A stretch of DNA of 36,613 bases from Candidatus Altarchaeum sp. (GTDB lineage: Archaea > Altiarchaeota > Altiarchaeia > Altiarchaeales > Altiarchaeaceae): assembly GCA_018260615.1 (NCBI GenBank), contig JAGWDQ010000096.1, positions 1 through 36,613 of the forward strand, written 5' to 3'. Shown piece by piece: positions 13,913-15,617 of this stretch (within the stretch, counting starts at the first letter, position 1; the number at the start of each line of letters is the position of its first letter). The notes under the pieces are model-generated. The model worked only from the letters and a program-made list of their open reading frames with translations, did not search any database and was not told the origin of the DNA. A program made the translations under genes and the position numbers.

Positions 13913-14321
13913 ATTTTATCGCCAAAACAAATTTTTAAACAAAAAACATATTGATAAATTGCATAAAATATAAAATGTAACTATTCAGCCACCCAAAAAA
14001 GTAAGAGTAAATTTTCCTCCATAAATCCATTAATTTTTATTTTTTTGTGTGCAATTTTAAACTTGTTTAAAATACACGATTTTCAAAATCGCAGAGATTT
14101 TGAAAAGACACGAACGAAGTGAGTGGAACGGAGTGAGAGTATAATTAATTATTTCATGAAAGTTTATGTTGATTGAAAACAAATTTATTTAAAAATCCAA
14201 TTATTAAAACTCAACCATTAATTGTATGGATAAGTGAGATTAGAAATAGCGAAAGAAAGTTTAAAGTTTTATTATAGCCCCATACTTAATTTATATTATC
14301 AGTTTTATACCTCTTACAAAA

Positions 14322-14780
14322 ATGAATATATTTATAACTTATAATACAAAAGATAAGAAGATTGTTGAGGCACTAAAGAGCAACCTTAACTTATTTTTAG
14401 GTCTAAAAACAAATATATTTGTAAATGATACGTTGTCAGGAAAATCACTTTCAGAAAAAATCAGGAAAACCATAGGCGATTCAGATATAGTTATTGTCTT
14501 ACTAACAAAGAAAGGAAGTAAATCCATAAGTGTGAATCAGGAAATGAGTTATGCTAAAAGTGCAGGGAAGAAAATAATTCCCATCGTGGAGAAAGGTGTT
14601 AACACAGCAGGCATGCCGGAAGATATAGAATATATACTTTTTGACAGAACGAACCCCTTAAATTCTATAGAAAAAAGTACACAAATTTTAGAAAATTTAA
14701 AAACAGAAAAAGAAATATTATCTTTGATAATATCAACAATTCTTTTTATTATGGTTATAGAATCAACAGGCAAAAAATGA
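14322..14780 (+). CDS. TIR-domain protein with hydrophobic C-terminal tail
   Basis: IFITY...D, LSEKIRKTI.DSDIVIVLLT, SVNQE (catalytic-position Glu74) and KKIIPIV; tail ILSLIISTILFIMVI. Confidence 0.85.
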   Translation: MNIFITYNTKDKKIVEALKSNLNLFLGLKTNIFVNDTLSGKSLSEKIRKTIGDSDIVIVLLTKKGSKSISVNQEMSYAKSAGKKIIPIVEKGVNTAGMPEDIEYILFDRTNPLNSIEKSTQILENLKTEKEILSLIISTILFIMVIESTGKK

Positions 14781-15037
14781 ATACTGTGCAATATGCAGAC
14801 ATAAATATAAACAGGCGGTTTATACTGGAAAATAAAGAGAAAATAAGAGAGGCAAGAAAAATGGTAGAAGGATGGATATGTGGAATTTTCAGGGAGATAT
14901 ATCCATCAATCCATCTATATCGGCGCGAAGCTGTTGATCCCTGGAAGGACTTCTTCCGGATAGGTGAAAGGATAAGTAAGAAAAAAAGTAAAATTAAAAC
15001 GCCCGGCTGGGAGATTGTCTCTGAAATGAGAAGATAA
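14777..15037 (+). CDS. Putative antitoxin (VapB-like) upstream of the PIN toxin
   Basis: 86 aa; ATGA overlap with the TIR gene and ends 1 bp before the PIN gene; C-terminus DPW.DFFRIGE.IS...EIVSEMRR resembles archaeal VapB tails. Confidence 0.6.
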   Translation: MNTVQYADININRRFILENKEKIREARKMVEGWICGIFREIYPSIHLYRREAVDPWKDFFRIGERISKKKSKIKTPGWEIVSEMRR

Positions 15038-15038
15038 A

Positions 15039-15479
15039 ATGTATTGCTTAGATGCGAGTGTTGTTGTAAATGCTTTTATGGCTGATGAAGAAGGTTATGA
15101 ATACAGCAGGAAGTTGCTTGAAAAAATACGGAGTAAAAATATACAAATTGTTGTTCCGCAAATAATTTTACCGGAAATTTCTGCGGCAATTGCAAGGAAA
15201 AAAGATGATGAAAATCTGGCAATATCTCTCGTTAAGGCGTTTGTAAAGATTCCTGACATCAAACTAATCCACATAGACGAAAATCTGGCAATGTTCGCAG
15301 CAGAAATTGCCGCAAAGTACAGAACAAGAGGTGCTGACTCATTGTATATTGCGGTCGCATTAACACACAAGGTTACACTCATTACCTTGGATAAAGAACA
15401 AAAAGACAGAGGTAATAAAATTTTGAAGGTTATAACTCCCAAAGAAGAACTCTCTACGGATAAATTATACAAAGAATGA
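15039..15479 (+). CDS. PIN-domain (VapC-like) ribonuclease toxin
   Basis: CLDASVVV, ILPEISAAIAR, RGADSLYIAVA and LITLD conserve the acidic PIN residues. Confidence 0.9.
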   Translation: MYCLDASVVVNAFMADEEGYEYSRKLLEKIRSKNIQIVVPQIILPEISAAIARKKDDENLAISLVKAFVKIPDIKLIHIDENLAMFAAEIAAKYRTRGADSLYIAVALTHKVTLITLDKEQKDRGNKILKVITPKEELSTDKLYKE

Positions 15480-15617
15480 GTGGTTAAAGAATAAAGGAAC
15501 CTTATTCAATAAAACAATGTAAGTTGGATCACCTCACTTTGTCCGGAAATTTCAATTTTGCATTGAAATCGCTGAATAGTTACTATAAAATTTATTAAAA
15601 TTATTAAAATACACAGA

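Follow-up and report, generated by a model that had tools for sequence, protein, structure and literature searches.

The locus between dnaJ-like and psiE-ACT

The window considered here is a stretch of 36,613 nucleotides, contig JAGWDQ010000096.1 of assembly GCA_018260615.1, from the groundwater archaeon Candidatus Altiarchaeum. It carries a 1.6-kb element without a transposase, which is inserted between two housekeeping genes, one dnaJ-like and the other psiE-ACT. The element measures 1607 bp from one terminal inverted repeat (TIR; the protein domain is always written TIR-domain) to the other. Its ends are exact 13-bp inverted repeats, and exact 8-bp direct repeats, a target-site duplication (TSD), lie just outside them. 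The genome to which the window belongs (G000) is a 2.23-Mb assembly of 148 contigs with 33% G+C and 87% completeness; it was compared with three congeners, G001, G002 (Ca. Altiarchaeales archaeon A3) and G003.

An earlier note on this DNA, made from the letters alone, had described such ends and such a TSD bounding 1607 bp, hairpin-repeat modules near both ends, and a coupled operon of a TIR-domain gene, a small open reading frame (ORF) and a PIN gene. Direct reading confirms the boundaries, and the hairpin modules are indeed there, with stems of 11 and 8 bp, both of them present in many copies in G000. ORF and Pfam analysis recovers the operon, and neither the ORF listing nor a family search gives a transposase-like ORF within the 1607 bp. 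IS-type TIRs, a TSD, passenger coding sequences and no transposase are the combination by which a mobile insertion cassette (MIC) is recognized. We consider it likely that the element is one: a non-autonomous derivative of a single-ORF, ISBst12-like insertion sequence (IS) of the IS66 family.

Table 1. Parts of the cassette, in window coordinates. Contigs named without a genome belong to G000.
Feature	Position	Strand	Basis and remarks
Left TSD copy, TATAAAAT	13969-13976	none	Direct reading; congeners hold a single (A)TAAAAT here
Left TIR, GTAACTATTCAGC	13977-13989	+	Direct reading, genome motif counts
Subterminal 'end A' region	13977-14012	+	BLAST; common to ~15 short copies of the repeat family in G000 at 83-96% identity (C31, C68, C100, C114, C134, C136, others)
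Low-copy backbone	14013-14185	+	Common to C87:26998-27120
Hairpin near left end	14072-14126		11-bp stem, z -3.9
Unique sequence			~30 nt between backbone and cargo block
Cargo block	14217-15569	+	92% identical to G002:C162:6219-7615
TIR-domain gene	14322-14780	+	Pfam TIR_2, ThsB_TIR; 152 aa
ORF86	14777-15037	+	86 aa; orphan small ORF, probable antitoxin
PIN-domain (VapC-like) gene	15039-15479	+	Pfam PIN; 146 aa
3' hairpin module of the operon	15512-15570	+	8-bp stem; common to C103:1655-1861; two copies at the G002 operon
Right TIR, GCTGAATAGTTAC on the + strand	15571-15583	-	Exact reverse complement of GTAACTATTCAGC
Right TSD copy, TATAAAAT	15584-15591	none	27-34 nt upstream of the psiE-ACT ATG at 15618

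A genus-wide family of ends

The ends of the cassette are not unique to it. With up to one mismatch the 13-bp end is found at 55 sites in G000, against a single site for the reversed control, and the 12-mer GTAACTATTCAG at 75 sites, whose family consensus agrees with the cassette ends. Most of these 12-mer sites form non-coding pairs 60-450 bp apart, with two types of end, 'end A' (…CAGCCACCCAAAAAA) and 'end B' (…CAGAGGGTACAAAAATTTAC). When the flanks of all 54 end pairs in G000 (up to two mismatches, at most 2.5 kb apart) are compared, 21 show perfect 8/8 repeats, as opposed to one in a control set of 2754 offset comparisons. Target sequences such as AAATTAAA, TAAAATAT and ATTTATTC are AT-rich, and the cassette is the sole pair of more than 500 bp with an 8/8 duplication. 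Exact copies of the 12-mer number 36, 97, 99 and 46 in the four Altiarchaeum genomes, while 27 further genomes from the class have zero to one each. The ends are those of a genus-wide repeat family that makes 8-bp TSDs.

An inverted repeat arising by chance would be a rival in DNA as AT-rich as this, and the earlier note had allowed for it, should there be no empty site and should other end pairs lack TSDs. The 21 duplicated pairs answer that point, and the near-zero controls on end counts and flanks, together with the empty site described below, exclude a chance match. Four matches to an 18-mer of the end were found among viral contigs; they are also put down to chance, since they lie in DNA of 53-56% G+C, as single ends and with no similarity to IS66.

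The highest density of MITEs (miniature inverted-repeat transposable elements) reported among archaea, 146 per Mb, is that of Ca. A. hamiconexum (PMC11602168). The cassette shares its termini, its 8-bp AT-rich TSDs and its internal hairpin modules with the Altiarchaeum MITEs. It differs from them in size and content: they are non-coding and 60-450 bp long, while the cassette, with three intact genes in 1607 bp, lies outside the usual description of a MITE (non-coding, under ~500 bp).

Empty and filled sites

Comparison with related genomes provides the state of the locus without the element. The flanks in G001 are 88.5% identical, and its homology to window positions 12051-13972 passes directly into homology to 15585-16383. 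G002 likewise joins both flanks, on a contig that starts 265 nt upstream; in either genome the dnaJ-like gene is directly next to psiE-ACT. Both congeners read …catattgata…(A)TAAAATttattaaaata…ATG and hold the target in single copy; after in-silico removal of the element and one duplicate, the window aligns to G001 over 169 nt with 91.7% identity. An empty site, which the earlier note had advised looking for in related genomes, is hence found in two congeners. In G003 the region upstream differs, so that this genome is uninformative for occupancy. The filled site, with the same element, ends and TSD, occurs at an identity of at least 98.4% in five assemblies or contigs, of which two are NCBI metagenome-assembled genomes, two stem from Logan runs and one from a JGI metagenome. 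A scan of metagenomes with a 24-mer spanning the junction of cargo and TIR gave no matches.

The right copy of the TSD does lie where the earlier note had placed it relative to the psiE-ACT start. One might speculate, as that note did, that the duplicated TATAAAAT serves as a psiE-ACT promoter preserved on insertion. In G001, however, the corresponding ATAAAAT is only 18-24 nt from the ATG, the distance being shorter in the congeners because the window has an extra 9-nt tandem repeat, and this duplication makes the argument from promoter spacing weak. By comparison with the congeners, short tandem duplications flank the cassette on both sides, at 13963-13976 and 15592-15609 (ATAAAAT twice and TTATTAAAA twice, 16 nt in total). 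They could be due to slippage or represent footprints of earlier insertions and excisions.

An IS66-family parent

Ends of the GTAA type combined with 8-bp repeats are the signature of the IS66 family (PMC11946415). The TIRs of the cassette begin GTAA and its TSD has 8 bp. The transposase of such an element was found in G002, where PF03050 (DDE_Tnp_IS66) matches C134:4343-5178 with an E-value of 3.8e-30. This match is enclosed in a 1725-bp element (C134:3594-5318) with an exact GTAACTATTCAG at both ends, the left of type B (…CAGAGG) and the right of type A (…CAGCCACCC). The first 18 nt at the left end of the cassette (GTAACTATTCAGCCACCC) are identical to the right end of this element. Its pieces correspond to DUF6444 (1.7e-8), zf-IS66 (7.9e-9) and DDE_Tnp_IS66 (8e-26), and are collinear on NF033517, covering positions 20-87, 169-342 and 345-384 of 387. 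As the final stop codon is a TGA within the right TIR, the ends belong to this IS66-family insertion sequence. A copy of autonomous type with a transposase, which the earlier note had suggested searching for, is thereby at hand in a congener, although in decayed form.

In a library of 1.8 billion proteins the best intact relative has 498 aa, 56% identity and the same three domains. Its contig is 1619 nt long and shows GTAACTACACAGCC at either end, delimiting an element of ~1.57 kb. Canonical IS66 elements have three ORFs, with the accessory tnpA and tnpB upstream of tnpC. These are absent here: neither the 1725-bp element nor its ~1.57-kb relative could accommodate more than one ORF, which fits the ISBst12-like single-ORF group. 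With that group the cassette family shares the GTAA ends and the 8-bp TSD, and its congener copy the single ORF with DUF6444, zf-IS66 and DDE_Tnp_IS66; the element in the window differs in having no transposase. From these sequence comparisons, the parent of the ends is a single-ORF, ISBst12-like IS66-family insertion sequence. The short MITEs are deletion derivatives of it.

The earlier note had instead pointed to IS1595. Elements of that family also produce 8-bp AT-rich TSDs. This origin is not supported, as the ends start with GTAA and the sole transposase bounded by such ends is of the IS66 family, while the lone match to PF12762 is below threshold (20.5 bits, C42 of G000) and falls in an IS1-family DDE gene without GTAAC ends. 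Descent from IS1595, or a chance inverted repeat, can be given next to no probability. The gene on C42 (L013:1246-1986) encodes an IS1-family transposase (DDE_Tnp_IS1, 7.6e-27) whose N-terminus is a zinc ribbon; it is unrelated to the GTAAC-ended family.

A different mobiliser could be sought in the window's own genome. On C104 of G000 a perfect GTAACTATTCAGC (C104:27862) lies 37 nt before the ATG of a gene whose product combines a Zn-ribbon with a Cas4-like PD-(D/E)XK nuclease. This protein, rather than an IS66 DDE transposase, might then mobilise the cassette. Homology between the paralogous loci on C104 and C32 begins exactly at the TIR, the N-terminus of the protein resembles the Zn-ribbon/HTH of IS1 InsA, the nuclease motifs are invariant across 25 homologues, and many of its 480 homologues stand on short contigs, some of them labelled 'transposase-like' by JGI. 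Yet no copy of the gene was found in the genomes richest in ends, G001-G003; TAG and TGA codons interrupt the C104 copy, which shows neither a TSD nor a clear second TIR; and homologues elsewhere lack such ends. The same ends directly bound an IS66 transposase in G002. As the transposase of the family the protein is unlikely, and we hold its mobilising the cassette to be very improbable.

The gene itself, of ~342 codons, is found at C104:26768-27862 on the minus strand (L010:2266-3363) and on C32 (L014:1589-2663), where an intact copy starts behind a degenerate copy of the GTAACTATTCAGC end. It belongs to no Pfam family, and its 480 homologues come from metagenomes. The motifs E223, D242, D255-x-K257 and Q271xxxY275 are the invariant ones among the 25, in a Cas4/RecB-like C-terminus, and a fold model (pLDDT 83) has Cas4 as its best match (4r5q, prob 0.98, E 8e-3). 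Possibly the gene is another passenger carried by these ends; alternatively, it may be a mobile nuclease gene that has gone unstudied.

The passenger genes

The three genes of the cassette make up a single operon with translational coupling: the start of ORF86 overlaps the stop of the TIR-domain gene (ATGA), and the PIN gene starts 2 nt past the stop of ORF86. The TIR-domain protein matches Pfam TIR_2 (6.5e-14) and ThsB_TIR (4.4e-7) as well as the ThsB-like profile of PADLOC (4.8e-8). In a weak alignment to a PDB structure (E 0.22) the Glu of its VNQEM segment stands opposite the Glu of the SARM1 segment VHKEI, which we take to be the catalytic glutamate of SARM1. It is a candidate NAD-cleaving or signalling enzyme, and its last ~20 residues, hydrophobic by eye, probably form a membrane anchor. 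No ThsA-like gene (SIR2/Macro-SLOG) lies in the cassette, the rest of the genome not having been searched for one; the operon as carried by the cassette is for this reason not a Thoeris system.

The PIN protein (Pfam PIN, 2e-19) has acidic residues, picked by eye, at D5, E46, D100 and D118, presumably its catalytic positions, and is a putative VapC-like ribonuclease toxin. Its relatives in metagenomes are only 35-43% identical. ORF86 belongs to no family in Pfam, NCBIfam or PADLOC and has homologues only in Altiarchaeum. Its place ahead of the PIN gene and the gap of 2 nt between them are as in a VapBC pair. A predicted complex of ORF86 with the PIN protein reaches an ipSAE of 0.80, compared with 0.00 for the best of three controls. 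This mark is attained by 51 of 78 solved complexes and by 2 of 108 mismatched pairs and, because VapBC complexes have been solved, it shows likeness to such pairs, not proven binding. Contacts agree by at least 96% between runs, with a partner pLDDT of at least 63, and place ORF86 residues 55-86 over PIN residues 5-8, 46, 97-100 and 117-121. As a putative antitoxin, ORF86 is predicted to cover the PIN active site with its C-terminal half. The cargo is most likely a type II toxin-antitoxin (TA) pair with a co-transcribed TIR-domain enzyme, and its putative role would be addiction, by which the cassette is stabilised, and/or defence.

A second copy of the operon is known from G002, at the C162 positions given in Table 1, where no family ends bound it. 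There it adjoins a truncated RhuM-like gene, ~4 kb from a HepT/MNT pair, and is accompanied by both copies of the 3' hairpin module, neither with a TIR. The 8176-bp contig (L040/L046) reads as a small toxin and defence islet, consisting of HepT/MNT, a 145-bp MITE, the TIR-domain/ORF86/PIN operon and the truncated RhuM-like gene. All three ORFs are intact in both genomes. Between G000 and G002 the PIN gene has a dN of 0.025 and a dS of 0.18 (dN/dS ~0.14), ORF86 a dN of 0.065 and a dS of 0.16 (dN/dS ~0.4), and the flanking psiE-ACT a dN of 0.17 and a dS of 0.72. These rates indicate an operon under purifying selection and much younger than the species split. Its divergence lies far below that of the flanking gene, which suggests that it was transferred from one lineage to another.

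Transposed as a unit or loaded in place?

Read as a MIC, the cassette would have kept only the transposase-binding ends of its parent and would hold passenger genes where the transposase had been. Its entry would have been into an AT-rich 8-bp target in the spacer between the dnaJ-like gene and psiE-ACT after the species had split from its congeners. A staggered cut, once filled in, would have left the duplication of TATAAAAT, and movement would require an IS66-family transposase supplied in trans. Mobilisation in trans by a cognate transposase has indirect support only, from the presence and absence of the insertion among congeners and from the lower divergence of the cargo relative to its flank.

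Alternatively, a MITE might have come first. An IS66-derived MITE would then have inserted and made the TSD, and the operon would have been added later by recombination, either homologous, through the hairpin modules, or illegitimate, so that transposition of the loaded cassette as a unit never took place. Its interior is composed, mosaic-like, of the TIR with ~35 nt of end A, a C87-like backbone and the cargo block, and in the backbone is nested a hairpin micro-repeat of ~48 nt (14073-14123) that is missing from the C87 copy. The G002 operon carries the same 3' hairpin module without a TIR, this is the sole loaded copy known, and the hairpin modules are abundant and recombinogenic in G000. 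On the other side, no allele with the MITE only has been seen: sites are either empty, as in G001 and G002, or fully loaded, as in the five strains. No other MITE of G000 pairs end A with the right arm of the cassette. In addition, a single base separates the end of the cargo homology from the right TIR, which would demand a very precise event in situ. Seeing only empty and fully loaded sites, together with this close junction, favours transposition as a unit, and we regard loading of a resident MITE as unlikely.

Several observations nonetheless weigh against the MIC interpretation. The congener site is empty but not base-perfect, because the excised window keeps 16 extra nt in its tandem ATAAAAT and tandem TTATTAAAA. 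The two arms of the cassette have only 13 nt in common. On the right, homology to the G002 operon breaks off 1 nt before the TIR, and on the left 240 nt inside it. The G002 copy is without TIRs and the left arm of the cassette is a mosaic, so that the operon could have entered a resident MITE in situ. The G002:C134 copy of the parent is decayed, with a broken frame and no TSD. Searches with PF03050 found no IS66 transposase in G000 or G001, and neither did tblastn with the G002 pieces in G000; at 87% completeness the absence from G000 is not established. Finally, no second copy of the cassette was found in the four Altiarchaeum genomes, so repeated transposition of the loaded form is not shown.

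The view of the earlier note, that the repeat family acts as a vehicle for such cargo, stands in part. The element is non-autonomous, its family is real and it does carry an operon; against this are the sole loaded copy in four genomes and a G002 operon without family ends. Of the other end pairs, which that note proposed to inspect, a number have perfect TSDs. The long ones, on C84 of G000 and on C86 and C41 of G002, have no cargo cassettes among them.

Relation to known elements

MIC231 of the Bacillus cereus group is derived from IS231. Cassettes of this kind resemble the element described here: they have IS-type TIRs and a TSD, lack a transposase, carry passenger ORFs with no relation to transposition, and are presumed to be mobilised in trans by the transposase of the cognate IS. 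The differences concern the parent, which is IS66 and not an IS4-family element, the host, an uncultivated archaeon, and the passengers, a TIR-domain gene with a VapBC-like pair. Moreover, the cognate transposase was not found in the assembly of the cassette, and one loaded copy is known. To our knowledge, few mobile insertion cassettes have come from archaea.

Type II TA pairs are also carried by Tn3-family transposons, where they may stabilise the element or its carrier (PMC7157771). In contrast to the cassette, Tn3 elements are autonomous and move by paste-and-copy with a resolvase; the cassette is tiny and non-autonomous, and its TA pair is co-transcribed with a TIR-domain gene.

The class of MICs has been named alongside MITEs and solo inverted repeats (PMC3129680). 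We found no description of an IS66-derived member. The case connects the MITE family that is so abundant in Altiarchaeum with its parent, a single-ORF IS66-family insertion sequence, and shows that the same ends are able to carry genes. The cargo belongs to gene classes of defence islands, and the cassette offers a testable route for the spread of such genes in a lineage that is not yet culturable. It reveals no new mechanism and adds a new case to a kind of element already known; its interest, for the biology of archaeal mobile elements and for the movement of toxin and defence genes, is moderate. A bolder proposal is that IS66-derived cassettes are working shuttles which move the TIR-domain/VapBC operon within and between Altiarchaeum species, in a current exchange of toxin and defence genes where the TA pair hinders loss. 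We offer it tentatively, as possible but doubtful.

Other occurrences of the ends

A number of further loci with these ends were considered as cassettes. In G000, C84:15054-16785 contains an isopropylmalate/homocitrate-synthase-like gene beside an independent MITE with its own TSD, and the PIN gene of C122 stands outside a 201-bp MITE. In G002, C86 has ABCE1 and a methyltransferase gene between unrelated MITEs, and C41 holds short MITEs only.

On C103 of G000 (L011:1663-4184) an end of the form GTAACTATTCAGCC ('end C') comes with the hairpin module of the cassette's right arm, followed by RelE/ParE-like, HepT and MNT genes. A second end is not present on this 4.2-kb contig, and look-ups of the exact proteins gave no matches for these genes. 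The orthologous site in G003, after a DUF234 ATPase gene, has the same end in a degenerate copy with different genes behind it. The C103 end is for this reason taken as an old solo end and not as a second cassette.

A non-coding element of 1.0-1.6 kb lies between the same ends at C125:4598-6192 of G000, with flanks that agree in 7/8 positions (ATTTATTT / ATTTGTTT). Its left end and ~594 bp are tandemly duplicated, and none of its ORFs reaches 60 aa. Within the window, a hairpin micro-repeat array at 3980-4268 ends in an inverted end-A TIR (GTAACTATTCAGT, minus strand, 4256-4268) and is 75% identical to the left arm of the cassette (13973-14136); neither a partner end nor a TSD was seen there. 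From C44:23800 onward in G000, a solo TTAACTATTCAGG end adjoins two genes, one for an AAA-type ATPase of 432 aa and a small one with a product that is Toprim-like by eye, a pair reminiscent of OLD/PARIS-type defence pairs.

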